Shown here in pieces: positions 5,182 to 63,794 of a stretch of 64,000 nucleotides of DNA. Every line of letters starts with the position of its first letter. Position 1 is the stretch's first letter. The translations under genes and the position numbers were made by a program. Under the pieces are notes generated by a model, which had not been told where the DNA came from, searched no databases, and saw nothing but the letters and a program-made list of their open reading frames with translations. Origin of the DNA: Fibrobacter sp. UBA1765 (GTDB lineage: Bacteria; Fibrobacterota; Fibrobacteria; Fibrobacterales; Fibrobacteraceae); NCBI GenBank assembly GCA_002314675.1, contig DCGZ01000157.1, forward strand, positions 177 to 64,176, given 5' to 3'.

Positions 5182-7068
5182 TTATTTGGCGCGTTCTACG
5201 GCCTCCTTGATGCTAGCCGTAGTAAGAATTTCTGAAAGGACTATTGGAGCCTTGTTTTTGTCATTTGAATAAACGGCATAGGCAGGAACGCCGCTTTTAC
5301 CAAGGCTTTTTAAAAGCTTTGTAACTTCTTCATCACCGTGAGTCCAGTCGGCCTTGACCTTTTGAACATTGCTATTCTTGAAGAATTCGTCAAGTTCGCT
5401 ATTTGCAAGCACCGCGGCCTCGTTAGCCTTGCAGGTAATGCACCAGTCTGCAGTTACATCCAGGAATACCATGGAACCTTTTTCCTGGATATCCTTCATC
5501 GCCTGTTCGGAATAGGCAATGTAGCCGTCTTCGATATGCGTTGCTGCTTGAAGCGTGCCTCCAAAGGAAACCTTTGCTAGAATGTTTAGAAGTATGATTG
5601 CAGTAAATGCGAGCAGCTCCTTTTTAAAGGAAATGCCTGGGGGTGCAAACTTTCCGATTGCAAATGCGCCGACAGTGTTCAAAATGAATATGCCGCCAAA
5701 GAATACAAGCCCAGAATTTGCGTAGGAGCGGTAGGCGACCCATAGCAGCCAGGCGACACTTGCAAGCAAAAGCACTCCCATGATCTTTTGCAAGGTGACC
5801 ATCCAGTTGCCTGGCTTTGGAAGGAATTTCAAGAGCTTTGGAAATAGCGACACGATTATGTAGGGGGAAGCTAGACCAAGGCCTGCCGCTGTAAAGAAGA
5901 GTATAAGAATCGGTGCAGTTTCGTTGAATGCAAAGCCCATTGCACTACCAAGCATTGGCGCTGAACAAGGTGTACTCAAAAGTACAAGAAGCGCTCCGGT
6001 AAAGAATGCTCCCGGTAGGCCTTCCTTGCGTGTTGCGCCATCCATTTGCGTGAGTGCCTGGCCCGGAAGCCAGACTTCGAAGATGCCAAAGAAGCTTAGA
6101 GCAAAAAGTGTAAGGATTGCAATCATGGCTAGCAAGAATCCACTGCTTTGGAATTGCATGCCCCAGCCAGGGTTTGCGCCACCAAGCCTAAGGACAATGA
6201 CGATGCCTGCGAGTACCCAGAATGATACGAGAATTCCAAGTACTGTAGAAAAACCAAGCGCCATAAGGCGAGGCTTGGATTCACCGGCTTGCCTTATCAG
6301 TGAAAAAAGTTTAAGCGAAAGTACGGGGAGCACGCACGGCATAAGGTTTAGAATGACTCCGCCAAGGAATGCAAGCAAGAGCATGAATGCGATGGATTCT
6401 GAACTCTTTTGTTCAGGCGCATTCTGCAGGACCTGTTCCTCTGCAGGTTTTGAATCTTGATCCTTAATTTTTTCAAGGCCCTCTATAGCAAAAACTTCTG
6501 CCTTGGAGCTTTCTGCGGCTGGGGCGTCATTAGCGGGGCCTTGAACTTCCGCCTCTTTTTGCCCCTTGAAAAAAGGGTCTAGCGTTACCATGACTGAATC
6601 TGGAGCAAGACAGATATTGCTGCATGCCTGGTAATAGAATGTCGCCTTCGTAGACAGGGTGTCGTAAGTACTTGTTACAGGTTTTGCCGGCAATTTTACT
6701 TGGAACGTGCCCTCGAAGATCTTGTTTACAAAGTCAAGGGCTTCACTATACTGTTCCTTTGGAACAGGCCAGATAGGCTCTCCAAATTCTATGCCGTTTG
6801 CTTCGATCTTTATGCTTGAGGGTTTTAAAAATTCATCTGCCGCTACATTTGCATTGACATGCCATTTTTCTGGAATAGTGATAGTTGCCGTAATATAGCT
6901 GTTGTCACCTAGAGCGCCTTCAGAATAGTTTAAACGCATTTGCGGGTCTGGCATCCCATTTAGTTCTACAACTTCGGCACATGCAAAAGTTGCACAGATA
7001 AGCATTGCCGTTTGCAACTTGGATGTTGCAAAATTTTTCAACACCTTTTCAAAAATTTTAAAATTCAT
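5182..7068 (-). CDS. dsbD: thiol:disulfide interchange protein DsbD (protein-disulfide reductase)
   Basis: N-terminal DsbD-alpha-like domain with C..IC. Central multi-TM domain with the CVLPVL motif. C-terminal thioredoxin domain with WCITC (CxxC). Confidence 0.85.
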   Translation of the reverse strand: MNFKIFEKVLKNFATSKLQTAMLICATFACAEVVELNGMPDPQMRLNYSEGALGDNSYITATITIPEKWHVNANVAADEFLKPSSIKIEANGIEFGEPIWPVPKEQYSEALDFVNKIFEGTFQVKLPAKPVTSTYDTLSTKATFYYQACSNICLAPDSVMVTLDPFFKGQKEAEVQGPANDAPAAESSKAEVFAIEGLEKIKDQDSKPAEEQVLQNAPEQKSSESIAFMLLLAFLGGVILNLMPCVLPVLSLKLFSLIRQAGESKPRLMALGFSTVLGILVSFWVLAGIVIVLRLGGANPGWGMQFQSSGFLLAMIAILTLFALSFFGIFEVWLPGQALTQMDGATRKEGLPGAFFTGALLVLLSTPCSAPMLGSAMGFAFNETAPILILFFTAAGLGLASPYIIVSLFPKLLKFLPKPGNWMVTLQKIMGVLLLASVAWLLWVAYRSYANSGLVFFGGIFILNTVGAFAIGKFAPPGISFKKELLAFTAIILLNILAKVSFGGTLQAATHIEDGYIAYSEQAMKDIQEKGSMVFLDVTADWCITCKANEAAVLANSELDEFFKNSNVQKVKADWTHGDEEVTKLLKSLGKSGVPAYAVYSNDKNKAPIVLSEILTTASIKEAVERAK

Positions 7069-7108
7069 AATTTTTACTCCGCTTAGTACGAATCTTTTTG
7101 AGGGAAAA

Positions 7109-7651
7109 ATGGGTCGACATCGTTCTACTCAATGTTTCGTGCTGCAATCTAGGGAATTCGAATTGTGGGCTCGATATTCCAGGTATATATACAAGCTTTG
7201 CCTTCGAAAATGCAGGGATTTTGAGAAGGCTCAAGATTTTTACCAGGAAATATACATAAAGTACCATTTGCACGCTGCAAATGTAGCTAATCATTCAAAA
7301 CCAGGCTTGTGGTTTAAACGAGTTGTGGAGAATGCATGGAACTCCAAGCTACGGGAACAGCTTCATGGTTTTTCCATAGTGTCTTGGGAGTGTCATGAAG
7401 ATACGGCCGCGTACAACCTGGTTGACGATAGCGACAATGAAGATTCTTTAAACCCATTTTTGAATTTCATAGAAACCTGCGAATTGCTAAATTCCTTGGA
7501 AAGGATGCTTTTTGAGTACCTGTATATAGGTTTTTCGCTTAAGGAATTGTCTGAAATTTTAGGATTATCAGTTCGTTCGCTTCGAAAAAAGTTTCGCAAG
7601 GCTGCAGAACGGCTTGAATCTGCAGGGCTTCTAAACAAAATTCTTCCGTAG
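7109..7651 (+). CDS. divergent sigma-70-family (ECF-like) factor
   Basis: Region-4-like HTH LSLKELSEILGLSVRSLRKKFRKAAERL and a weak region 2. First ATG is at 7109; the track ORF starts earlier and overlaps dsbD. Confidence 0.55.
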   Translation: MGRHRSTQCFVLQSREFELWARYSRYIYKLCLRKCRDFEKAQDFYQEIYIKYHLHAANVANHSKPGLWFKRVVENAWNSKLREQLHGFSIVSWECHEDTAAYNLVDDSDNEDSLNPFLNFIETCELLNSLERMLFEYLYIGFSLKELSEILGLSVRSLRKKFRKAAERLESAGLLNKILP

Positions 7652-51884: not shown

Positions 51885-53345
51885 TTAGGCTTGTTCGCCG
51901 CTTTCGCGGATGCGTTTGCGGGCCTTGCTGCCTGGGCGGTTGCGACGCTTTTTGCGGTGCTCGTTAGCGTTTGCCTGTGGCACTTGGTTAATCTGTTGCG
52001 CAGTTTCGTTTATGCTTGGCTGTGTTGTAAGGGAGGGCTTGTTCGCCTTTTTTTGTTTTTTATGGCCGCCCTGCCTTTGCTGTTGATTGTTGTTAGAAAC
52101 TTCGGAACTTTCATTCGTCGTCGCGCTGTTGCGAGGAGCGTTTCCCTTGCCGTGGCGCTTGCCTTTTGGATTGTTTTGCTGGGGTGGCAGCGGCTGCGGT
52201 TCGGGGAGGTTTGCGTAAATGCCGTGGTCGCCTTCTGGGAGCTTTACGCGAGTAACTTTTTCAATGAGCTTTAAGTTGTCGTTGTCTTCTGGACAGCAGA
52301 ATGCGATTGCTTCGCCGTCTTTGCCTGCTCTGGCTGTACGGCCGATGCGGTGCACGAATGTTTCTGCCTCGTTGGGCAAGTCGTAGTTGATGACATGTGT
52401 AACATCATCGATGTCGATGCCGCGTGCGGCGATATCTGTTGCGATGAGAATGCGGATCTGTTCTGTCTTGAAATTATTTAGGGCCTCTTGACGGCGGGTC
52501 TGGCTCTTGTTGCCGTGAATTGCCGCACACTTGAAACCGGCCTTTTCTAGGGTTTCTGAAATCTTGTTTGCACCGTGCTTTGTGCGGCTGAACACGAGAA
52601 CCTTCTTCATTTCGGGGCGTGTGTTCAACAGCTCCTTGAGAAGTGCCGTTTTGCGGCGCTTTTCGATATGGTAGGCTACCTGCTTTATGCGTTCTATTGG
52701 TGTACTCTGCGGGGCGACTTCAATTCGGACCGGGTTGCTGCCCAAAACACTTGCTGCAAGCTTTGCGATTTCTGGCGGCATGGTTGCCGAGAAGAACAGG
52801 TTCTGGCGCTTTGCCGGGAGCATTGCCACGATCTTCTTGATGTCGTGAATGAATCCCATGTCGAGCATTCTGTCGGCTTCATCAAGGACAAAGAATTCAA
52901 GGGCCTTTAAAGAAACAGCCTTTTGTGCGATGAGGTCCAGTAAGCGGCCCGGGGTTGCGACAAGCACGTCTACGCCGTGAATGAGGGCGTGCTTTTGCGG
53001 AATGTCGGAAACGCCGCCAAAAACGCATGCCGTGTTCATTGCCGTGAACTTTGCATATTTTTCAAAGCAGTCTGCCACTTGAATTGCAAGTTCGCGTGTC
53101 GGCAAAAGAACTAGAGCACGAGCGCACTTTGTAGACCTGAAGTTTCCAGATTCCAAAAGCAGCTGTAAAATCGGGAGGGCAAATGCCGCTGTCTTGCCGG
53201 TTCCGGTCTGTGCGATGCCGCACAAATCCTTGTGCTCGAGTAAAACAGGAATAGCCTTCTCCTGTATTGGAGTAGGCTCTTCGTAACCGATTTCGCGAAC
53301 GGCGCGCTTTAGGGGATTTATTAACTGAAAATCTTCAAACTTCAT
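51885..53345 (-). CDS. rhlE: DEAD-box ATP-dependent RNA helicase with basic/Gln-rich C-terminal tail
   Basis: Q motif (PTPIQ), AQTGTGKT, DEAD, SAT and HRIGRTAR. About 110-aa low-complexity basic tail. Confidence 0.9.
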   Translation of the reverse strand: MKFEDFQLINPLKRAVREIGYEEPTPIQEKAIPVLLEHKDLCGIAQTGTGKTAAFALPILQLLLESGNFRSTKCARALVLLPTRELAIQVADCFEKYAKFTAMNTACVFGGVSDIPQKHALIHGVDVLVATPGRLLDLIAQKAVSLKALEFFVLDEADRMLDMGFIHDIKKIVAMLPAKRQNLFFSATMPPEIAKLAASVLGSNPVRIEVAPQSTPIERIKQVAYHIEKRRKTALLKELLNTRPEMKKVLVFSRTKHGANKISETLEKAGFKCAAIHGNKSQTRRQEALNNFKTEQIRILIATDIAARGIDIDDVTHVINYDLPNEAETFVHRIGRTARAGKDGEAIAFCCPEDNDNLKLIEKVTRVKLPEGDHGIYANLPEPQPLPPQQNNPKGKRHGKGNAPRNSATTNESSEVSNNNQQQRQGGHKKQKKANKPSLTTQPSINETAQQINQVPQANANEHRKKRRNRPGSKARKRIRESGEQA

Positions 53346-53348
53346 GCA

Positions 53349-53765
53349 CTATAAGTTAGAAAATTTTCCACTTTCCATATTTTCGATGTAATCGGTAAGC
53401 ATTTGCTTGTTGCTTTGCGTTTCTGAGTCCAGTTCGCTAGCAATTTGGGCTTCGGCGATTTTTGCAACGTACTTCATGATGCTGTCATTCTTGAAATCGC
53501 TAGAACCATGCTTTGCAAGTCGCATCACTTCTTCGTGGATTTCTTCTCCATAGACACTCTTGAAGTTTTCGCAGTATGTGTTTAGAACCTGCTGTAATTT
53601 GCAAATGAAGATTGCTTGATTCTTGAATAAGTCAATATCCGTTTTGAATGTTGGCGCATGGGACCCGCGAAGGAGCATTGTACCGTCATCAAAATTGAAG
53701 TAAATTGAAATGGGGGAGTTGGCTGTGCGCTTGCAGTCTCTTATGTTTGTCAAATAGCTTGGCAT
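53349..53765 (-). CDS. hypothetical protein (138 aa)
   Basis: Co-directional, 3 nt upstream of the helicase start. No recognised motif. Confidence 0.5.
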   Translation of the reverse strand: MPSYLTNIRDCKRTANSPISIYFNFDDGTMLLRGSHAPTFKTDIDLFKNQAIFICKLQQVLNTYCENFKSVYGEEIHEEVMRLAKHGSSDFKNDSIMKYVAKIAEAQIASELDSETQSNKQMLTDYIENMESGKFSNL

Positions 53766-53805: not shown

Positions 53806-54186
53806 TTAGAAATTGAAGCGCGCTTCATCAAAGCAGCGCTCTGCCTGTTCGTCTTCATCCAATTCATCTTCCAACTGAATCGTTCGTGGATAAAGCGGCC
53901 TGATCTTTGCGTCCGCAAGGGGCAAAAGTTCCATTACCGTTTTTTCTATGTCTTCGGCAGATGGCGAAAAGCACTTGAATGCATCGCGGATCTTTTCTTC
54001 GGAGTCCTGCAAAAATTGTATAATGGCATGTTCAACATTAAAAAAGTCGCCGTATTCGGCTTCATTGACGGTGATTTCAATGAATGTCTTTTCGTTTGGG
54101 TCGTGCATGCCGTTTGGTGCGATGGAGTATGCGAGGCTTACCTTGGCACTGTTGATTCCGATGTCTGTAAAAAGAATTCTTTGCAT
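53806..54186 (-). CDS. hypothetical acidic protein (126 aa)
   Basis: 23 nt downstream of the sigma-factor gene stop. Acidic C-terminus (LEDELDEDEQAE). Confidence 0.5.
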   Translation of the reverse strand: MQRILFTDIGINSAKVSLAYSIAPNGMHDPNEKTFIEITVNEAEYGDFFNVEHAIIQFLQDSEEKIRDAFKCFSPSAEDIEKTVMELLPLADAKIRPLYPRTIQLEDELDEDEQAERCFDEARFNF

Positions 54187-54209: not shown

Positions 54210-55058
54210 TTAGGCGGCAATGTCAGAAAAGTTTACGCCCATTTCATCGGCAAATTTCCTGATCTTGCCGCATGCCCTCTTGTAAATGACCCTGATGCCT
54301 TCGTGGGTCATGCCCATTTCCTTTTCCAAGTCCCTGAAGTTTAGGCGTTCGCCGTTAAAGCCGTCATAAGCCCTTACGACATAGAGCTCCTTTTCGTTCA
54401 GCACGGCCAGAGCCTTTGAAATAAAGGATTCCTGTTCCTTGAGAACAATCCCGAATTCGGGACCGTTTTCGTTGCTATCAGCAATGCTGTCGATTCTGCT
54501 TTCTTTGCTGTCTTCAAATTGGCTTTGGTCCAAGGATATGGCGCTGTAGTTGCCAAGTATCAAGGTCTTTTCGCTTTCGTCGCTGTCTTCAACATCGTCT
54601 TCTTCGCAGCTTTCAAATTCTACGAAGGCGTTTTGCTTGAGCTTTTTATTTAGCTGCCTTTGTTCCCTTTGAACATTGGCCGGTATGTGCACTATGGAAT
54701 CCTGACTGTTTATGAGGTCCATGATTGCAGATTTCATTGACCAGATGGCGTGAGTGCGAATGCATGTGCCGCGGCTTGGGTCAAAAGTCCTTAATGCCAT
54801 TAGAAAGCCGTAGACCGCAGCCGAAAACAGGTCGTCTTGTGTCAGCCTCTTTGTTTGGTACTTGGCTGCAGTTGCCTTTATGAACTTGAGGTTTGCCTTG
54901 ACAAGCTTGTCTTCGGCGATTCTCTTTTCTGCAGAGGACTTTGAGTAGAGCGCCTTTTCGATCAGTGCGGCTTCTTCTGCAGCGGAAAGCTGCGAAATGC
55001 TTGCAGAAAGAAGCTGTTCGTAGGTGTTGGAACGTGGTTGTGTTTTGACGTTAGCCAT
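54210..55058 (-). CDS. divergent sigma-70-family factor, paralog 1 (282 aa)
   Basis: Region-2-like LVKANLKFIKATAAKY...FDPSRG..IRTHAIWSMKSAI...IVHIPAN. Acidic linker. Region-4 HTH FRDLEKEMGMTHEGIRVIYKRACGKIR. Confidence 0.8.
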   Translation of the reverse strand: MANVKTQPRSNTYEQLLSASISQLSAAEEAALIEKALYSKSSAEKRIAEDKLVKANLKFIKATAAKYQTKRLTQDDLFSAAVYGFLMALRTFDPSRGTCIRTHAIWSMKSAIMDLINSQDSIVHIPANVQREQRQLNKKLKQNAFVEFESCEEDDVEDSDESEKTLILGNYSAISLDQSQFEDSKESRIDSIADSNENGPEFGIVLKEQESFISKALAVLNEKELYVVRAYDGFNGERLNFRDLEKEMGMTHEGIRVIYKRACGKIRKFADEMGVNFSDIAA

Positions 55059-55306
55059 AACGTTTTATCCTTGAAATTTTTGAATGACACTGATAAGATG
55101 CCCCGTGGAGTCTGGGGCACCCTGAGATTTGCGAAAATGGTGAAAACCATTTTTTTAAGGTGATGGTGCGGTTTGCACCTACGAATATTTTGGGGAAATT
55201 ACGCAGTGATCAAAAAAAGCGATAGGGGAGCTTGTTTTCAAAGATCTTTGTTGGATATAATATAGAAAATAGGGGGGATCCCCTATTTTAAGGGACTGGC
55301 GCAAAA

Positions 55307-56128
55307 TCAGGAGAAGTAGAAAGAGTGCTTGTCTACTTTCTTTGCCTCGGCTCTTTGGCGGAGCTTTTCTATGGCCGCGTTTCGGATTTGACGGATGCGT
55401 TCGCGTGAAATATCCATGCAGCTTTCAAGTTCACGGTAGTTCTGGACATCTCCAAAAAAGCCGCAATTTGCCTTCACGAGGTACGATTCCCTTTGCGGAA
55501 GGCTTGAAAGAAGTTCTTCGCAGAGTTTTTTCTGCTCGATTTCATCAATGTACGCTTCTGTGGAAAAGGAGCTGTCGCTGATGCTTGCCGCAAGAGGTTC
55601 GCGGCTTGATTCGCCCTTGATGCTTGTCGGCAAATCAATGGATACTGTTTTCACGAATGCCTGCCTTGCATTGTCTTGTGCTTCTGCGTCTACGGTTTTG
55701 CCGGAATCTAAAAGCCTTGTAACCTTGCGGCGTTCAAGAATCCTGTTTGCAGGGATATGTACGAGGCTTTCCTGCTGGTTCAAGAATGCCGTGATTGCGC
55801 CACGTATTGCCCAGATGGCGTGTGTTATGAACTTGTTTCCGCGGCTTGCGTCAAAGGTGTCGATCGCTGCAACCATTGCCGTGAGCGCTTCAGAAAACAT
55901 GTCGTCCATGTCGATGGACTTGTTCTGGAATTCATTGACTGCCTTTGCGACAAAGCGGATGTTTGCGCATGCAATGCGATCGCGGGCCGCCTTGCGTGCG
56001 GCTGCCGTCTTTGCGGAATGGTATTGGTTGAAGAGCTCCTGTTCTTCGGTGGCGCTGACTGGGTTAGAAATATTTGAGGCAAGGAGCTTGTTGTAGGAAG
56101 AGTGGCTTTGGCAATTGTATGGAGTCAT
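55307..56128 (-). CDS. divergent sigma-70-family factor, paralog 2 (273 aa)
   Basis: IACANIRFVAKAVNEF...FDASRGNKFITHAIWAIRGAI...LVHIPAN. Region 4 YRELESCMDISRERIRQIRNAAIEKLR. Confidence 0.8.
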   Translation of the reverse strand: MTPYNCQSHSSYNKLLASNISNPVSATEEQELFNQYHSAKTAAARKAARDRIACANIRFVAKAVNEFQNKSIDMDDMFSEALTAMVAAIDTFDASRGNKFITHAIWAIRGAITAFLNQQESLVHIPANRILERRKVTRLLDSGKTVDAEAQDNARQAFVKTVSIDLPTSIKGESSREPLAASISDSSFSTEAYIDEIEQKKLCEELLSSLPQRESYLVKANCGFFGDVQNYRELESCMDISRERIRQIRNAAIEKLRQRAEAKKVDKHSFYFS

Positions 56129-56227
56129 ATGCTGTTATATGAATTAAAAAATCAAAAAAGCAAGTGCAGAGATTTATTTTCTCTGCCTGCTTGAAAATTT
56201 TTTGCCCGTGAAGGGCGCCTGACAGGA

Positions 56228-57016
56228 TTATTCAATGTATGTAGCGCGGTTGCCTAAGCTTTGGCGCAATTTTTTGAGTGCCTGTCTCTTGAGCTGGCCT
56301 ATGTACTGGTGGGCTACGCCTTGTTCGCGGGCGATATCATTCAGACTTTCTTCATCGCGGTAGCCCAGGCCGAATGCGCGTTCAATGACATCCTTTTCCC
56401 TTGGCTTTAATGCCTTCATGCCACCGCGGAGAATCTGGCAGATTTCCTTAGCGTACATCTCGTCTTCAAGATTTCCGTTGCTTGCCTTGAGCAAGTCTTC
56501 GATAGTGAAGTCGGAATCGTTGTCGAGCGGCATGCTTGTAGACATGTACTTTGGATTGAGATCCTTGTACAGATTGTTTTCCTTGGCATTCAGAGCTTCG
56601 CCCTTGTTTACTCGGTTGTTGAGTTCGCGGCGGGTGTCCTGCTTGTTGGACGGAATGTGGAGCAATTCACAATCTTTAAACAACTTGGAAAGCTTGCCGC
56701 GGACCTTCCAGCTGGCGTGGGTGTAGAGGCTTGCGCCGGAATTTGGGTTGTAGCTGTCGATTGCTTCACCTAGAGCGAGTGCAGCTGTATTTAATATGTC
56801 TCCGTATTCAAGGGAGGCATGGCCGTAATCCTTGATCATTTGCATGATTTCTGCAAGGTGGCTGGTGTAGAGCATTTCTCTTGCACGGGCGGCAAGTTTT
56901 GTGCCCTTGTTGTTGCGTATGATTTCGAACAGCTTGGCATCTTCTGCCGGAGTCAAACGCTTTGTGTTCTTGACGAACTTGGAGATGTTGGAGGTTTGGA
57001 ACTGGGTTGTGCGCAT
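56228..57016 (-). CDS. divergent sigma-70-family factor, paralog 3 (262 aa)
   Basis: YNPNSGASLYTHASWKVRGKL...LLHIPSN. Region 4 LNDIAREQGVAHQYIGQLKRQALKKLR. Confidence 0.75.
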   Translation of the reverse strand: MRTTQFQTSNISKFVKNTKRLTPAEDAKLFEIIRNNKGTKLAARAREMLYTSHLAEIMQMIKDYGHASLEYGDILNTAALALGEAIDSYNPNSGASLYTHASWKVRGKLSKLFKDCELLHIPSNKQDTRRELNNRVNKGEALNAKENNLYKDLNPKYMSTSMPLDNDSDFTIEDLLKASNGNLEDEMYAKEICQILRGGMKALKPREKDVIERAFGLGYRDEESLNDIAREQGVAHQYIGQLKRQALKKLRQSLGNRATYIE

Positions 57017-57620
57017 AGATTTTATCCTTTTTTAGAGTTTAGGATTCCCCCGGCCCGTATTTACGGGACGATTTTTATGCATACGTCAGGGAAGGAACGT
57101 ATACCGGCAAGGCTTTCGACCTTGCTTGCGCAGGTAACAAGGAACGGCCGTTTCATTTTGCAGGGAGGCTCGCCAACACGTATAATTATTATTTCACGCG
57201 TAAAGCCATTTGTGAGGCGATGCCAAAAACTGCGAAAGACCTTAGTCGGACCCAGTTTTACAGACTGTTATTTGATGTTAATCCTCGGTTTTGAGGACTT
57301 AAAGGACTGAAAATTTGAGAGGGGAAAATACTCAAAAATAATCATAAACCTCAAATATTGTTGGTTGATTCGGTTTGGACTTCAAATTTAGAATCTTGGA
57401 GTGACATAAAACGTCAATCCAGGGAAATTTTGAAAAAAATCATAAAAAAACTCCTTTTTATTTATTGATGTTTTGTTAAATGAAAGTGGACCGGAATTTC
57501 AAAAAGCAAAACGTCGGCGGGGCGGCGCGCCGCCTGTAGAGCAAATGTCGTGCCAAAGATGGCTTTTGGCGTATTTGCTTAATTTTAAGGAAATGATGTT
57601 CGTTGAGTAATACTGAATAT

Positions 57621-57651
57621 GAAAAATATTTCACTATTAGTGAAATATTTT
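57621..57651. terminator. perfect palindromic hairpin downstream of ORF 57697-58197
   Basis: aaaaatatttcac-tatta-gtgaaatattttt: a 13-bp stem flanked by A/T runs. Confidence 0.65.
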
Positions 57652-57696
57652 TCTTTAATGTTCTAGATTGTTGTGTCTTATCTAAACCAGATGTTC

Positions 57697-58381: not shown

Positions 58382-58996
58382 TTATTTGCGCTTTGCGGCC
58401 TTGAGCATTTTCTTGATGTTGCTTGCCGTTGGCGTTTGCTTTTTCTGTGCGTGATCCTTTGGCTTTTCTGGGCAAAGCAAATCTGCAGGAATTGCAGGCA
58501 AAATGCCGGTAGGCAAATTGAATGGCAAGTCCAAAAATGCCTTTAGACGCTCGAACCAATTTTTGTTCGACATGTTGAAAACGGGAATGCCCTTCAGGTC
58601 TGCCATGGCAATCGCTTGCCCCGTTCCGCCGGAAGCCTGCTTGCGGTCTTTTGCGTGCTCGCAGCCGTCCTTGGTGGAGCAGACTATGAAATCTACAGGC
58701 GTGTCGAGGTTTATGCCAAACACCTGGAACGTGTTGCGCGCAAATAAATCTAGCGCGTGTGCATATAGATGTTCTGGCGAAGGGTGCAACTCCTTTGCAA
58801 TGGCGCGCGCCTCGTCGGTTGCGTGAGCTGGCGTAAATATGTGCGCTTTTGAAGCTCGCTTGCTATCCATGCCATAACGCGTTCCACAGGCTGCTGCGTG
58901 TTTGGTTCCCTGGCTCCCGACAAATCGCGATGCCCGATGCCTGCGTATGTGAACGACTTCTTTTTGCCATTTCGGCAAGTCTGCGAAAGTTCTCAT
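58382..58996 (-). CDS. hypothetical protein with possible Rossmann/SLOG-like nucleotide-binding core and basic tail
   Basis: The segment VDFIVCSTKDGCEH...ASGGTGQAIAMADLKGIPVFNM resembles LOG/DprA/SLOG-type loops. This is a weak, memory-based call. Terminator-like hairpin ccaacacc/ggtgttgg at 58339-58363. Confidence 0.45.
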   Translation of the reverse strand: MRTFADLPKWQKEVVHIRRHRASRFVGSQGTKHAAACGTRYGMDSKRASKAHIFTPAHATDEARAIAKELHPSPEHLYAHALDLFARNTFQVFGINLDTPVDFIVCSTKDGCEHAKDRKQASGGTGQAIAMADLKGIPVFNMSNKNWFERLKAFLDLPFNLPTGILPAIPADLLCPEKPKDHAQKKQTPTASNIKKMLKAAKRK

Positions 58997-59193: not shown

Positions 59194-59400
59194 TTGTTGT
59201 GGAATTTATGCGATATAACAATGATTATTGACAATGTAACCAGAACATATTTTGAAAATTTTAAGAACCAATATGTGCTTATTGGCGGTTCTGCATGTTC
59301 CATTTGGTTTGATGTAAATGGCGGCAAGTTTAGATCGACGAAGGATTTGGACATTGTGTTGATCCTTGTGGGTAGTCAACCTTCTTCATTTACGGTGTGA
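59194..59400 (+). pseudogene. truncated nucleotidyltransferase-like fragment (AbiEii/DUF-type NTase N-terminus)
   Basis: YVLIGGSACSIWFDVNGGKFRSTKDLDIVL matches the GS...D.D minimal NTase motif, but the ORF stops after 68 aa, directly at a terminator. Confidence 0.35.
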
Positions 59401-59408
59401 ATGAACAC

Positions 59409-59436
59409 AAAAAACGGACCTTACGGTCCGTTTTTT
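59409..59436. terminator. bidirectional terminator
   Basis: aaaaaacggacc-ttac-ggtccgtttttt. Confidence 0.85.
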
Positions 59437-59463
59437 GATGTGAATTTTTTTAATGATTTGACT

Positions 59464-62398
59464 TTATTTCTCGCCAGGAAATTTTGGTTTGTGGGATTTT
59501 TCAATGGGACAGTTGTCAAATGCGTTTTTATTGTTTGTTACATTGTTAACATTCCATTCAGAGATGTCTCTGTTGAATTTGGAATCACAGAATATCCAAT
59601 CCATGTCAGCTACATTGCTAACATTCCATTTAGAAATGTCTCCATTGAATTTAGAATCACAGAACATCCAACTCATATCTTTTACATTACTTACGTTCCA
59701 GTTTGAAATGTCTCCGTTGAATTGACAATTTTGGAACATGCCTTTCATGTTTGTGACGTTACCTATGTTCCATTTGGAGATGTCTCCGTCAAATTCAGAA
59801 CATTCGAACATACCACTCATGTTCTTTACGTTGCCCGTATTCCATTTGGAAATGTCTCCATTGAATTGAGAGTTGCTGAAAATACAGCTCATGTCAGTGA
59901 TGTTGCTTGTATCAATAAAATTAAGGTTGCATTTATGGCCTTTTATTTCGATAGTCTGCTTGATTAAACTTTCCAAATGTTCTTTGTCTCGCACCTTGAT
60001 GGATATGTTGTTTCGGAATTTTGAAATAGAAAATAAAGAATGTCCATCTGTGATATTAGATATGTTCCATTTAGAGATGTCTCTATTGAATTGAGAACCT
60101 CTGAATATGCTTCTCGTATTTGTCACACTGCTTACATTCCATTCGGAGATGTCTCCATTGAATTGAGAACCTCTGAACAAGTCACTCATGTCAGTGACGT
60201 TGCTTACATTCCACTCAGAGATGTCTCCGTTGAATAATGCTTCACAGAACATACTTCTCATGTCAATGACATTGCTTACGTTCCATTCGGAGATGTCTCT
60301 GTTGAATTGAGAATTTCTGAACATGTAGCTCATGTCAGTGACCTTGCTTACGTTCCATTCAGAGAAATCTCCGTCAAATTGTGAGTTTTCGAACATATGA
60401 CTCATGTTCGTTACGTTGCTCACATTCCATTTAGAGATGTCTCCGTTGAATCTGGAGCCGCTGAACATATAGCTCATGTCAGTGATGTTGCTGACGTCAA
60501 TAAAGTTTAGATTGCAGTAGCAGCCGTTTCGTACGATAGTCTGCTTGATTAAACTTTCCAAATGTTCTTTGTCTCGCGCCTTGATGGATATGTTTGGAAA
60601 GAATTTGGAAATAGAAATCAAAGAATGCTCATCTGTGATTTTAGATATATTCCATTTAGAGATGTCTCCGTTGAATTGGGAATCACTGAATATCCAATCC
60701 ATGTCAGCTACATTGCTAACATTCCATTTAGAGATGTCTCTAGTGAATTGAGAATTTCTGAACATGTAGCTCATGTCAGTGACATTGCTTACGTTCCATT
60801 TAGAGATATCTCCGTTGAATTTAGATCCGCTGAACATACTTCTCATGTCAGTAACGTTGCTAACATTCCATTTAGAGATGTCTCCGTTGAAGCTGGAACC
60901 ATTGAACATTTCGCTCATGTTCGTTACGTTGCTCACATTCCATCTAGAAATGTCACCATTGAATTGGGAATTTGAATAGGAATCACCTTCGTCATCAGAC
61001 CAGGAAGTAAATAAGTTACTCATGTCAGTGATGTTGCTGACGTCAATAAAGTTTAGATTGCAGTAGCAGCCGTTTCGTACGATAGTCTGATTGATTAAAC
61101 TTTCCAAATGTTCTTTGTCTCGCGCCTTGATGGATATGTTTGGAAAGAATTTGGAAAGGGAAATCAAAGAACGCTCATCTGTTTCAGATACATTCCATTT
61201 AGAGATGTCGCCGTTGAATTTAGACCTGCTGAATATCCAATCCATGTCATCTACATTGCTTACATTCCATTTAGAGATGTCTCTATTGAATTCAGACCCG
61301 CTGAACATGTGGCTCATGTCAGTGACATTGCTTACATTCCATTCGGAGATGTCTCCGTTGAATTGAGAATTTCTGAACATGTAGCTCATGTTCGTTACGT
61401 TGCTCACATCCCACTTGGAAATGTCTCCGTTGAATTTAGAATCCAGAAACATGACGCTCATGTCGGTCACATTGCTCATGTTCCATTTTGAGATGTTGCC
61501 ATTGAATTTAGACCCACTGAACATGTGGCTCATGTCAGTGACATTGCTTACATCCCATTTGCAAATGTCTCCGTTGAATTGAGAATATTCGAACATTCCG
61601 CTCATATTTGTGACGTTGCTTACGTCCCATTTAGAGATGTCTCCGTTGAAGCTGGAACCATTGAACATATGGCTCATGTCCGTTACGTTGCTCACATTCC
61701 ATCTAGAAATGTCTCCGTTGAATCGGGAATTGGAATAGGAATTGCCTTCGTCGTCGGACCAAGAATCATCTTCATCATCAGGCCAGGAAGCAAATAAATA
61801 ACTCATGTCGGTAACATTACTGACATCAATGAAATTCAAGTCGCAATTGTAGCCGTTTAGTTCAATAGTTTGCTTAATCAAATTTTCCAAATGGCTTTTG
61901 TCTCGAGCCTTGATAGATATGTTGGTGTGAAATTTAGATAGAAAAATCAAAGAATGTTCATCAGTTTCATTGGTGATTTTGGATACATTCCATCTAGAAA
62001 TGTCTCCGTTGAATCGTGAGCTGGAATAGGAATCGCCTTCGTCGTCGGACCAGGAATCATCTTCATCATCCGACCAGGAACCAAATAAATCGCTCATGTT
62101 TGTCACGTTGCTCACGTCCCATTCAGAGATGTCTCCGTTGAATTGAGACTCGTTGAACATGCCCTCCATGTTTGTTACATTGCTCACATCCCACTTGGAG
62201 ATGTCCCCATTGAATTGTGAATTGCAGAACATTTCGCTCATGTTTGTCACATTGCTCACATCCCATTTGGAAATGTCTCCGTTGAATTCAGAATCCTTGA
62301 ACATTTCACTCATGTCCGTCACATTACTTACATTAATGAAATTTAGATCGCATTCGTTTCCTAATTTTTGAATCGCCTCACGAATAAGTTCGGATAAG
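59464..62398 (-). repeat. coding tandem repeat array (about 75-nt units in 5 higher-order modules)
   Basis: Module heads at approx. 59890, 60475, 61021, 61802 and 62322. 60475-60612 and 61021-61158 are almost identical at the DNA level. Confidence 0.9.
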
Positions 62399-63582
62399 TG
62401 TTCTTTATTTTGTGCCACGATTCTTTTTCTTGCTTTCTGAGCAATAAAATTAACCATGCCTTCAAGGACTTCATCGCTGTAATAAACACCGTGAACTCGT
62501 CTGGTGTCACTGCCGTTGGCCGTTTCAACCAGCATGTCGCCTTTACCAAGTAAATCTTCTGCTCCGCCTTCTCCAAGGATTGTTCTGCTGTCGATGTCTG
62601 TTCGAACTTTAAATGCAAATGTTGCGGCAAGGTTTGCCTTGAGATCCCCAGTCACGACTTTTGTACTTGGTCTTTGCGTTGCAAGTATTATATGGATTCC
62701 TGCTGCTCGACTTTTTTGGGAAAGTCTTTGAACGCAGTTCGTAAGTTCCTTGCCGTTGCTTAACATTAAATCTGCAAATTCATCTACAATGCAGACTATG
62801 TATTTCATTTGCTTTTGGATAGGTTGTTTTTGGTTGAATGCCTTGATGTTTTTTGTCTTGGTTTTTGCTAAAAGGTCATATCGGCGTTCCATTTCGTCGA
62901 TAAGCCAATTTAGCTTGTCTATGCATTCTTCTGCATTGACGAGTACAGTGTTGTCTATGACATTTGGCAGTTTTTCAAACGTTCCAAGTTCAACGCCCTG
63001 TTTTGGGTCAATGAGCATCAACTGATATTCATGCTCGCTTTTGTGCTTTAGCAGGCTGGCTATGATGCTGTTTATGCATACACTTTTCCCGGAACCGGTT
63101 TGGCCAGCAATGAGCAAGTGAGGAGCTTCGGCCAAGTCTATGGCTACGCTTTCTCCAGTAATGCCTACACCTATTTCTAATGGCAGCTCCATTTGGCTGC
63201 AATCGGCGTTTACATTGCCCGGTAAAACATTCTTGCGATTTTTTACAGGAATGTCTATAGCGACGCAGCCTAAATCGCTATTGATGGAACAGCTTAGCTG
63301 CTTTGTCATTAAGGCTATGGCTAGGTCATCTTTTAAGCTTATTATGGAACTGGCTTTTGTTCCTATTGCTGGTCGAACGTTTATTCTTGTAATGACCGGG
63401 CCGCATTCAATGCTGTGGAATGTGGCCTTTACCCCAAAGCTTTCCAGGTTTTGTACAATTTGTTCACCAAGGGATTCATCTGCAGGATTGGTTAAATCTT
63501 CTTTTTCGCTGCAAAAGCGCTTTATCATTTCATTGCGTTCAGATTTTGTGATGCTAGGACTGACGAATTCAAATTCCATCAT
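59464..63582 (-). CDS. FtsK/SpoIIIE-type ATPase fused to about 28 DUF285/BspA-like leucine-rich-type repeats (1372 aa)
   Basis: N-terminal approx. 390 aa: Walker A IAGQTGSGKS (nt 63082-63105), Walker B IVCIVDEFADL and ILATQRPS. No TM helix or signal peptide seen. The remainder is repeats of F..S.FNGDIS.W[ND]VSNVT.MS.MF in five modules. Confidence 0.85.
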   Translation of the reverse strand: MMEFEFVSPSITKSERNEMIKRFCSEKEDLTNPADESLGEQIVQNLESFGVKATFHSIECGPVITRINVRPAIGTKASSIISLKDDLAIALMTKQLSCSINSDLGCVAIDIPVKNRKNVLPGNVNADCSQMELPLEIGVGITGESVAIDLAEAPHLLIAGQTGSGKSVCINSIIASLLKHKSEHEYQLMLIDPKQGVELGTFEKLPNVIDNTVLVNAEECIDKLNWLIDEMERRYDLLAKTKTKNIKAFNQKQPIQKQMKYIVCIVDEFADLMLSNGKELTNCVQRLSQKSRAAGIHIILATQRPSTKVVTGDLKANLAATFAFKVRTDIDSRTILGEGGAEDLLGKGDMLVETANGSDTRRVHGVYYSDEVLEGMVNFIAQKARKRIVAQNKEHLSELIREAIQKLGNECDLNFINVSNVTDMSEMFKDSEFNGDISKWDVSNVTNMSEMFCNSQFNGDISKWDVSNVTNMEGMFNESQFNGDISEWDVSNVTNMSDLFGSWSDDEDDSWSDDEGDSYSSSRFNGDISRWNVSKITNETDEHSLIFLSKFHTNISIKARDKSHLENLIKQTIELNGYNCDLNFIDVSNVTDMSYLFASWPDDEDDSWSDDEGNSYSNSRFNGDISRWNVSNVTDMSHMFNGSSFNGDISKWDVSNVTNMSGMFEYSQFNGDICKWDVSNVTDMSHMFSGSKFNGNISKWNMSNVTDMSVMFLDSKFNGDISKWDVSNVTNMSYMFRNSQFNGDISEWNVSNVTDMSHMFSGSEFNRDISKWNVSNVDDMDWIFSRSKFNGDISKWNVSETDERSLISLSKFFPNISIKARDKEHLESLINQTIVRNGCYCNLNFIDVSNITDMSNLFTSWSDDEGDSYSNSQFNGDISRWNVSNVTNMSEMFNGSSFNGDISKWNVSNVTDMRSMFSGSKFNGDISKWNVSNVTDMSYMFRNSQFTRDISKWNVSNVADMDWIFSDSQFNGDISKWNISKITDEHSLISISKFFPNISIKARDKEHLESLIKQTIVRNGCYCNLNFIDVSNITDMSYMFSGSRFNGDISKWNVSNVTNMSHMFENSQFDGDFSEWNVSKVTDMSYMFRNSQFNRDISEWNVSNVIDMRSMFCEALFNGDISEWNVSNVTDMSDLFRGSQFNGDISEWNVSSVTNTRSIFRGSQFNRDISKWNISNITDGHSLFSISKFRNNISIKVRDKEHLESLIKQTIEIKGHKCNLNFIDTSNITDMSCIFSNSQFNGDISKWNTGNVKNMSGMFECSEFDGDISKWNIGNVTNMKGMFQNCQFNGDISNWNVSNVKDMSWMFCDSKFNGDISKWNVSNVADMDWIFCDSKFNRDISEWNVNNVTNNKNAFDNCPIEKSHKPKFPGEK

Positions 63583-63794
63583 GATGAAACCTCGTAAGGC
63601 TTGGGTATGTTGTTTACATTCGCTAATATATATTCTTTATCGGAAAAGAAAATTGCAAATGAATCAAAACCGGACCGTAAAGACTGAATCTCCCCAAAAT
63701 TTACGCTCGCTTTCATAAACTTTCAATTCCCCGCTTGCCTTTTTCAAGAAAAATTTCATAATGCCTTTTGTACCTCAACCAAGGAACGGTCGTT

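Follow-up and report, generated by a model that had tools for sequence, protein, structure and literature searches.

Sigma factors set which genes a bacterium switches on together. In the adjacent paralogs sigE and sigG of the Bacillus subtilis spoIIG locus and in the cascades of phage SPO1, sigma factors outside the extracytoplasmic function (ECF) group act in an ordered programme; these proteins are conserved across a whole class, have known regulons, and are controlled through processing of a pro-sequence or by anti-sigma factors. To our knowledge, almost nothing is known of the transcription machinery of Fibrobacterota, which are major fibre degraders in herbivore guts. Here, we describe three adjacent sigma-70-family genes, sig3, sig2 and sig1, in a 64,000-nucleotide (nt) stretch of contig DCGZ01000157.1 of Fibrobacter sp. 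UBA1765 (assembly GCA_002314675.1), hereafter the window.

Outside their own family, the best matches of the three proteins, at 32-36% identity, are the short RpoD/SigA-like core paralogs of Fibrobacterota (contigs C103 and C137 in this genome; P0040 is another example). Like the trio, the core paralogs are about 250-280 amino acids (aa) long, lack region 1.1, have a short region 3, carry R/H-I/L-P-A-N after region 2.4, and have Ser or Asn at the Q406 position. Unlike the trio, they belong to every genome of the class and have hundreds of homologs with identities of 60-93%; G408, Y430 and both residues of the W433-W434 pair are retained, and RpoS/RpoD models give them about 190 bits. The trio forms a separate clade (support 99/96), reaches 66-95 bits, occurs in two of the 151 genomes compared, and no longer has W434, Y430, Q437 and G408. 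The names of the homologs of the C103 core sigma indicate that the organism belongs to Fibrobacterota and, within it, to Fibrobacteraceae. Group 3 sigma factors (FliA/sigma-28, SigB/F/G, RpoH) share with the trio the lack of region 1.1, the joining of sigma-2 and sigma-4 by a middle segment, and the status of non-essential accessory genes, and the (I/V)(R/K)G at positions 435-437 of the trio presumably resembles region 2.4 of the FliA/SigF type. Unlike the group 3 subfamilies, the trio falls short of the specific models, scores best on RpoS/RpoD-C-terminal models, keeps Trp433, and has a region 3 undetected by Pfam. It also differs from sigE-sigG and the SPO1 sigmas in being confined to a few uncultured genomes and diverging rapidly. 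MzaA has a sigma-70-like portion to which the trio can be aligned, but the whole protein is about 700 aa long and includes a large N-terminal part.

The trio represents a new and very narrow subfamily within a well-known protein family; its population-genetic signature is unusual, and its function is one that we infer from sequence. In a genus of uncultured Fibrobacteraceae, three sigmas have become a private family, with changed -10-reading residues, under selection and behind a conserved RNA-like leader, and turnover in this family is far more rapid than in the chromosome around it. In the literature, we found no earlier description of such a sigma array in Fibrobacterota.

Classification and architecture

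An initial annotation of the window, made without database searches, had reported three minus-strand reading frames of 282, 273 and 262 aa as sigma-70 paralogs of low pairwise identity, with regions 2 and 4. The reading frames are exact (Table 1), and the measured identities, 33-34% for sig1/sig2, 21-25% for sig1/sig3 and 22-26% for sig2/sig3, are indeed low. Family membership was borne out as well: Pfam detects Sigma70_r2 and Sigma70_r4 in sig1 (E = 2.8e-9 and 1.9e-5), sig2 (4.5e-10 and 1.2e-5) and sig3 (3.7e-4 and 4.2e-8). On PF04542 (region 2; cut-off 24 bits), sig1 and sig2 score 37.0 and 39.6 bits, and sig3, with 20.6, falls slightly below; on PF04545 (the sigma-4 helix-turn-helix; cut-off 24.1), all three exceed the cut-off, with 24.5, 25.1 and 33.0 bits. 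The only NCBIfam sigma model passed by the trio is that of the sigma-70 superfamily, TIGR02937 (67.9, 65.7 and 58.7 bits for sig1, sig2 and sig3; cut-off 42.9).

Every specific NCBIfam model is missed widely, so that classification with hidden Markov models (HMMs) places the three in no described functional subgroup. The best specific scores, 66-95 bits, are to the RpoS/RpoD-C-terminal models, with cut-offs of 354-394; these low scores and the loss of the Y-A-x-W-W-I-R-Q motif set the trio apart from groups 1 and 2 (RpoD, SigA, RpoS). On the models for FliA_WhiG (TIGR02479), SigBFG (TIGR02980), RpoH (TIGR02392) and SigK, the trio scores 48-58, 49-65, 57-72 and 38-61 bits, below the cut-offs of 189.6, 234, 323 and 299, respectively. 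The four other non-ECF sigmas of the genome (contigs C155, C111, C137 and C103) reach 160-190 bits on the best RpoS/RpoD model, three of them about 190, and the trio is therefore much more divergent than the ordinary paralogs of the lineage. Assignment to the ECF group (group 4) is contradicted by the length of 262-282 aa, compared to 189-191 aa in the true ECF sigmas of the genome (C193, C172), by RpoS/RpoD alignments that begin in region 1.2 and span the middle segment, and by the phylogenetic tree, which groups the trio with non-ECF short sigmas.

Region 1.1 is absent, the proteins beginning about 20-45 residues ahead of region 2.1. Comparison with the Protein Data Bank using phmmer aligns sig2 with primary sigmas over regions 1.2 to 4.2, and the trio can be aligned over the full length with RpoS, RpoD and SigA. 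The sigma-3 domain (PF04539) was undetected by Pfam in the trio; about 62 residues separate the HIPAN motif from region 4.1, and the NCBIfam RpoS alignments pass through this middle segment. In an AlphaFold model of sig2, built from a 24-sequence alignment, sigma-2 (residues ~20-120) and sigma-4 (~190-262) are modelled confidently, with a predicted local distance difference test (pLDDT) of 73-89 and 76-91, respectively, and two low-confidence helices (127-141 and 148-156; pLDDT 48-64) take the place where the three-helix sigma-3 bundle would stand. The full-length matches of this model in a Foldseek search are sigma subunits of holoenzyme structures, including SigA and sigma-S. On the strength of these sequence comparisons, the trio can be classed as sigma-70-family paralogs outside the ECF group and outside every described functional subgroup, and appears group-3-like in architecture.

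Elsewhere in the window, a plus-strand open reading frame (ORF) of 210 aa (7019-7651) has a further weak Sigma70_r2 match (30.5 bits) and probably encodes an ECF-like sigma unrelated to the array.

A rare family with conserved gene order

The array had been singled out as unusual, and it proved to be rare, the family being carried by only about 5 sources among 1.84 billion representative proteins. An exhaustive profile search of this set ranked P0035 (215 bits) and P0036 (177 bits) next after the three proteins of the window; a smooth continuum of ordinary sigmas then begins at 150 bits or less, and another family member, P0046 (136 bits), lies inside this continuum. A second species of the genus (G003) is the source of P0035 and P0046, its two sigmas of the family, and P0036 is the sole member from beyond the sampled genomes. 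A word-indexed search of 5.8 billion proteins yielded only two close relatives, both of sig2 (99% and 69% identity), followed by matches at 26-32%. Species-representative genomes searched with the HIPAN pattern gave only a 27%-identical Prolixibacteraceae sigma, which is not a family member, and 2.9 million viral contigs scanned with family peptide patterns gave 214 pattern matches, none encoding a relative. In the comparison set of 151 genomes of the bacterial family, the cassette formed by the sigma genes and two small ORFs, orf126 and orf138, is found in two, the genome of the window (G000) and G003, at the same chromosomal site; within the genus, this amounts to two of five genomes. Both small ORFs are likewise restricted to G000 and G003 among the 151 genomes, orf126 being 45-47% and orf138 34% identical between the two; scans of Pfam and other family libraries gave no family match for orf126.

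Further copies come from a sister strain with about 97% DNA identity to the window (L070, from sequencing run SRR28408248), a JGI contig (L011) and an ENA contig (L012). In the maximum-likelihood tree, which was accompanied by a quick tree, the nine family members split from 33 other sigmas with support of 99/96. The type B clade (100/100) consists of sig3, L011_a262, G003_264 and P0036; the type A clade (99/94) splits into the sig2 lineage, A2 (100/99), and the sig1 lineage, A1 (94/86), with sig1, G003_275 and L011_c202. The lineages match the gene order everywhere: B-A2-A1 in the window, L070 and L011; B-A2 in the short, near-identical L012, where the contig then ends; and B-A1 in G003, which has two members only. 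Given this match, the array goes back to an old triplication in tandem, or else to a duplication, with one loss having occurred in G003.

Two giant proteins, P0037 (7852 aa) and P0072 (2469 aa), are among the best family-profile matches, with 158 and 129 bits. The sigma-like segments are embedded deep inside these sequences, which may be gene-call fusions or unusual fusion proteins.

As a separate observation on the paralogs, sig1 (54736-54788) and sig2 (55806-55858) have in common two 20-nt DNA blocks with 90% identity, exactly 1070 nt apart, which code for the FDxSRG and THAIW stretches in genes that otherwise are about 33% identical in protein. These blocks may reflect gene conversion between the paralogs or strong codon-level constraint.

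Promoter-reading residues

We aligned the nine family members with 124 ordinary short sigma-70 proteins from the exhaustive search, with Escherichia coli sigma-70 numbering as the ruler. Gly408 is replaced by Ala in all nine family members, compared to 8 of the 124 background sequences. Tyr430 is replaced by His in seven of the nine (background: His in 2 of 124, the canonical Tyr in 112). Trp434, present in 112 of the 124, is lost throughout the family, and Gln437, present in 86 of the 124, is Gly or Ser in all nine members. Trp433, Phe419, Gly424 and Pro453 are retained. We take Y430 and W433/W434 of sigma-70 to act in melting of the -10 element, Q437 to read position -12, and R584, E585 and R588 to read the -35 element.

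At the -10 positions, sig3 has H430, K434 and G437, sig2 has H430, A434 and G437, and sig1 has H430, S434 and S437. In the -35-reading helix (584-589), sig2 has the canonical R-E-R-I-R-Q, sig3 has H-Q-Y-I-G-Q where R-E-R-I-R-Q is usual in most sigmas, and sig1 has H-E-G-I-R-V. Such alterations at known -10- and -35-reading positions lead us to predict three different, non-housekeeping promoter specificities for sig1, sig2 and sig3.

The motifs on which the initial annotation had based its expectation of non-canonical specificity, THAIWSMKS, THAIWAIRG and THASWKVRG, are present, as are VHIPAN, VHIPAN and LHIPSN, and the non-canonical character of the -10-reading positions is specific to the family in the comparison with the 124 ordinary sigmas. 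The same does not hold for (V/L)HIP(A/S)N, which had been named as another peculiarity: Asn stands there (position 455) in 89 of the 124, and His/Arg-Ile/Leu-Pro is the rule. The core sigmas of the same genome read VRIPAN and IRLPAN at this place, and HIPAN is a trait of the sequence neighbourhood and not of the trio. Loss of Q406, another candidate family trait, was ruled out, Ser or Asn being the commonest residue at position 406 among the 124 related sigmas.

Selection and divergence between strains

Pairwise comparison with L070 shows that all three sigma genes are under purifying selection and that none is decaying: the ratio of nonsynonymous to synonymous divergence (dN/dS) is 0.034-0.20 (Table 1), and the sigma ORFs are intact in every copy from the five sources. 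Synonymous divergence (dS) in the cassette, 0.10-0.23, is 2-5 times higher than in the flanks, where it is 0.04-0.05. In a 200-bp sliding comparison, the divergent tract begins abruptly inside orf138 (~53500) and peaks in sig1. Divergence of sig2 and sig3 is patchy, with bins of 20-21 mismatches next to bins of 0-5, and is nearly gone over the 5' half of sig3 and the leader, with only 4 mismatches in 56702-57301. Thus, divergence between the strains is concentrated in the cassette as a mosaic hotspot, and the patchy pattern is one that recombination imports from divergent alleles would leave.

The ranking of rates seen between the strains recurs at a greater distance: compared with L011, sig2 is 69%, sig3 55% and sig1 about 35-40% identical. 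Between the window and G003, the sigmas are 34-36% identical, and the neighbouring helicase is 76% identical.

Table 1. Coordinates of the cassette and its surroundings in the window, and pairwise divergence from the sister strain L070
Feature	Position	Strand	Description	aa identity (%)	dN/dS	dS
orf166				98.2	0.19	0.041
Leader of sig3	57017-57262	minus	~245 nt; three conserved blocks and hairpins			
Leader blocks 1, 2 and 3	57230-57256; 57179-57197; 57139-57163	minus	near-identical between two species			
sig3	56228-57016	minus	262 aa; type-B lineage; leads the array	97.3	0.086	0.157
Hairpin after sig3	~56158-56192	minus	terminator- or attenuator-like; with U-tract			
sig2	55307-56128	minus	273 aa; type-A2 lineage; slowest-evolving member	98.5	0.034	0.184
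Hairpin after sig2	55266-55289	minus	10 perfect pairs; weak U-tract			
sig1	54210-55058	minus	282 aa; type-A1 lineage; acidic linker; fastest-evolving member	90.4	0.20	0.226
orf126	53806-54186	minus	small acidic protein without family assignment; 23 nt past sig1; cassette member	91.3	0.38	0.099
orf138	53349-53765	minus	small protein without family assignment; stop 3 nt ahead of helicase start; cassette member	93	0.18	0.146
DEAD-box RNA helicase	51885-53345	minus	genus core gene; downstream neighbour; outside the variable cassette	99.0	0.095	0.047
yidC				99.5	0.044	0.047

Leader and intergenic hairpins

The leader upstream of sig3 is far better conserved between G000 and G003 than the proteins, with three near-identical blocks while the adjacent sigmas are only 34% identical. 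Block 2 holds TGAAATAAT, which is extended -10-like, and block 3 holds the near-palindrome GAAACGG/CCGTTCC. The blocks are single-copy in the genome, and an exact block match is confined to G000 and G003 within the 151-genome set; matches with two mismatches in the other genomes of the set are about as frequent as in a reversed-pattern control and were counted as chance. An invariant 18-mer of the leader was found at 46 loci in metagenomes, all by chance, none of which encodes a family protein or has exact block 1; one of the 46 holds an 11-mer that is one mismatch off block 1. There is no Rfam family for the leader, with only two meaningless matches at E <= 1. In the consensus fold, 8 of the 55 pairs are compensatory, the stems of some hairpins differing in sequence yet pairing, and the minimum free energy has a z-score of -2.41. 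The structured-RNA reading of this fold is suggestive and no more; the leader is possibly a new type of cis-regulatory RNA, or else a compound promoter-operator.

Hairpin terminators had been noted after the second and third paralogs. The one after sig2 is real and consists of AAAAUAGGGG AUCC CCCCUAUUUU, followed by UUUUCUAU; nothing convincing corresponds to it in L011. The one after sig3 is also real, followed by CUUUUUUGAUUUUUU, but does not sit at 56190-56223, where it had been placed (Table 1). The window, L011 and G003 each have a hairpin with a U-run behind the type-B gene, in unrelated sequences, and the z-scores of the intergenic folds are -4.15, -2.08 and -2.01, respectively. The gaps between sig1, orf126, orf138 and the helicase are 23, 40 and 3 nt, and the minus strand from 55058 to 51885, which covers these four genes, contains no terminator-like site.

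Proposed role and alternative explanations

We regard the three proteins as probably functional alternative sigmas of a small, lineage-restricted, group-3-like clade, which originated by tandem duplication followed by divergence. With sigma-2 and sigma-4, a short acidic linker and a reduced region 3, each would dock on core RNA polymerase, read a promoter and guide the enzyme to non-housekeeping promoters of a type of its own. The changes expected to underlie this are the altered -10-reading and melting residues common to all three (Tyr430 to His, loss of Trp434, Gln437 to Gly or Ser, with Trp433 kept) and the -35-reading helix, which is canonical in sig2 and altered in sig3 and sig1. Transcription would most likely enter from the conserved, regulated leader upstream of sig3, and the hairpin terminators after sig3 and sig2 may reduce or gate read-through into the downstream genes. 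sig1 would be made together with orf126 and orf138, which are candidate partners or anti-sigmas, and possibly also with the DEAD-box helicase. At its fixed chromosomal site, the cassette is a hotspot of divergence, and probably of recombination, between strains, and the end that contains sig1 and the small ORFs, where change is fastest, would act as a rapidly changing module. If the specificities differ as predicted, the family would offer a natural series of related sigmas for the study of how promoter recognition evolves, candidate orthogonal parts for engineering, and a way into the regulatory differences between strains of gut fibre degraders.

Several points weigh against this reading. 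All members have replacements at Gly408 and Asn409, which lie in the helix contacting the beta-prime clamp, and core polymerase binding could be weakened or altered as a result. Region 3 is undetected by Pfam and of low confidence in the AlphaFold model, and only two effectively independent sequences underlie the covariation seen in the leader. The sig2 start codon follows the sig3 terminator after only about 40 nt; a separate promoter for sig2 is therefore doubtful, and the separate transcription that had been proposed for paralogs 2 and 3 is not established, read-through or attenuation being at least as likely. No promoter motif common to the upstream regions of the three genes was visible on inspection across the window, L011 and G003.

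The last two points bear equally on a sequential cascade, which the initial annotation had raised as a possible role of the array alongside a set of interchangeable specificity subunits, and in which the leader would drive sig3, sig3 would drive sig2, and sig2 would drive sig1 with the small ORFs, as in sporulation or phage SPO1. The fixed gene order, the terminator-like hairpins between the genes, the three different predicted reading heads, and a spacer of 228-248 nt ahead of sig1 that could house a promoter are all compatible with such a programme, but the room for a promoter ahead of sig2 is lacking, no conserved motif stands upstream of sig2 or sig1 across the three loci compared, and G003 has two members only, and we consider a cascade unlikely. 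In another reading, the cassette would be a diversifying specificity module, with polymorphic sigmas and two co-evolving small partner proteins maintained by recombination and selection, a structured RNA leader of a type not described before as a switch, and a role in conflict with phages or mobile elements; such a role could be, for example, escape from phage anti-sigma proteins or control of the adjacent strain-variable island. This would be a new role for sigma diversification, and we hold it to be rather improbable. Slightly less credit still can be given to the view that a mobile element or prophage left the cassette behind or carries it as cargo, with sigmas that serve the element and not the host. 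The patchy distribution (two of five genomes of the genus), the adjoining strain-variable island with a phage-type DprA-like gene and an FtsK-like gene, and the elevated, mosaic dS, which suggests exchange between lineages, fit this view; against it, no relative was found in the 2.9 million viral contigs, only generic sigma matches were obtained among PHROGs, no integrase, tRNA or attachment site, or flanking repeats were found around the cassette, the cassette occupies one and the same chromosomal site in two species, next to which the island is either different or missing, and the GC content of the cassette (~0.45-0.47) matches that of the surrounding chromosome, as opposed to 0.39-0.42 in the island.

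The replaced residues at 408 and 409 and the loss of Trp434 from the tryptophan pair, taken together with a degenerate region 3 and HMM scores of 66-95 bits, very low compared to the other sigmas of the genome, could also mean that these sigma-like proteins are no longer initiation factors, and that they act as decoys or partner-titrating regulators or are duplicates drifting to loss. We find this very unlikely in view of the purifying selection on all three genes, the intact ORFs in five sources, the retention of Trp433, Phe419, Pro453 and the sigma-4 helix-turn-helix, and the fully canonical -35 helix of sig2. Finally, MzaA, the sigma-70-family component of the MZA system, is the sole PADLOC match of the sigmas, and the locus is variable and lies beside an island, which would fit an anti-phage defence system of this kind. 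The matches to the MzaA model (NF041931), however, reach 42-80 bits against a cut-off of 800 and involve the generic sigma part only, the housekeeping-type sigmas of the genome match MzaA better (133-184 bits), and no other MZA component was found among the neighbours scanned; a defence role of this type is hardly credible.

Chromosomal site and neighbouring island

The cassette, in the order leader, sig3, sig2, sig1, orf126, orf138, lies directly upstream of the core DEAD-box helicase and yidC. The identity of the helicase is indicated by PADLOC helicase-family matches that fit the DEAD/DEAH-box type and by the 99%-identical copy in L070, which has the Pfam domains DEAD and Helicase_C. The helicase was found in all four same-genus genomes tested and is 76% identical in G003. 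At the same site, G003 has the helicase, ORFs of 135 and 112 aa, and sigmas of 275 and 264 aa. In the three other genomes of the genus (G001, G002, G004), the helicase and yidC are present and the cassette is absent.

The initial annotation had placed the array next to an accessory island. The neighbouring island is indeed strain-variable, but the cassette itself is outside it, at a conserved site common to the second species, and is a separate, chromosomally anchored unit. On the far flank in L070, orf166, a DprA-like gene and two other genes are followed by a GT4 glycosyltransferase gene and a DUF4954 gene, which also border the G003 cassette; in the assembly of the window, these GT4/DUF4954 core genes sit on contig C172. 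The DprA-like gene of the island (58382-58996, minus strand, 204 aa) matches phrog_768, a DprA-like DNA recombination-mediator protein (E = 1e-27), and is 98% identical in L070. The giant FtsK-repeat gene of the window (59240-63715) is replaced in L070 (4795-6694) by two unrelated genes of 322 and 254 aa with matching flanks, and the FtsK island is therefore a strain-specific insertion. The interval that separates the DprA-like gene from the GT4/DUF4954 core genes is thus confirmed as a slot that varies between strains.

Two minor observations concern the borders of the cassette. In G001 and G004 (loci L008-L010, which include G002), the helicase and yidC are adjacent on one strand, unlike in the window, and in G002 they lie on one strand in reverse order; the helicase-yidC region has evidently been rearranged within the genus. 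Just past the stop codon of orf166, in the strain-variable spacer, a perfect palindrome of 16+16 nt, GAAAAATATTTCACTA / TAGTGAAATATTTTTC (57621-57653), could be a bidirectional terminator or a protein-binding site.

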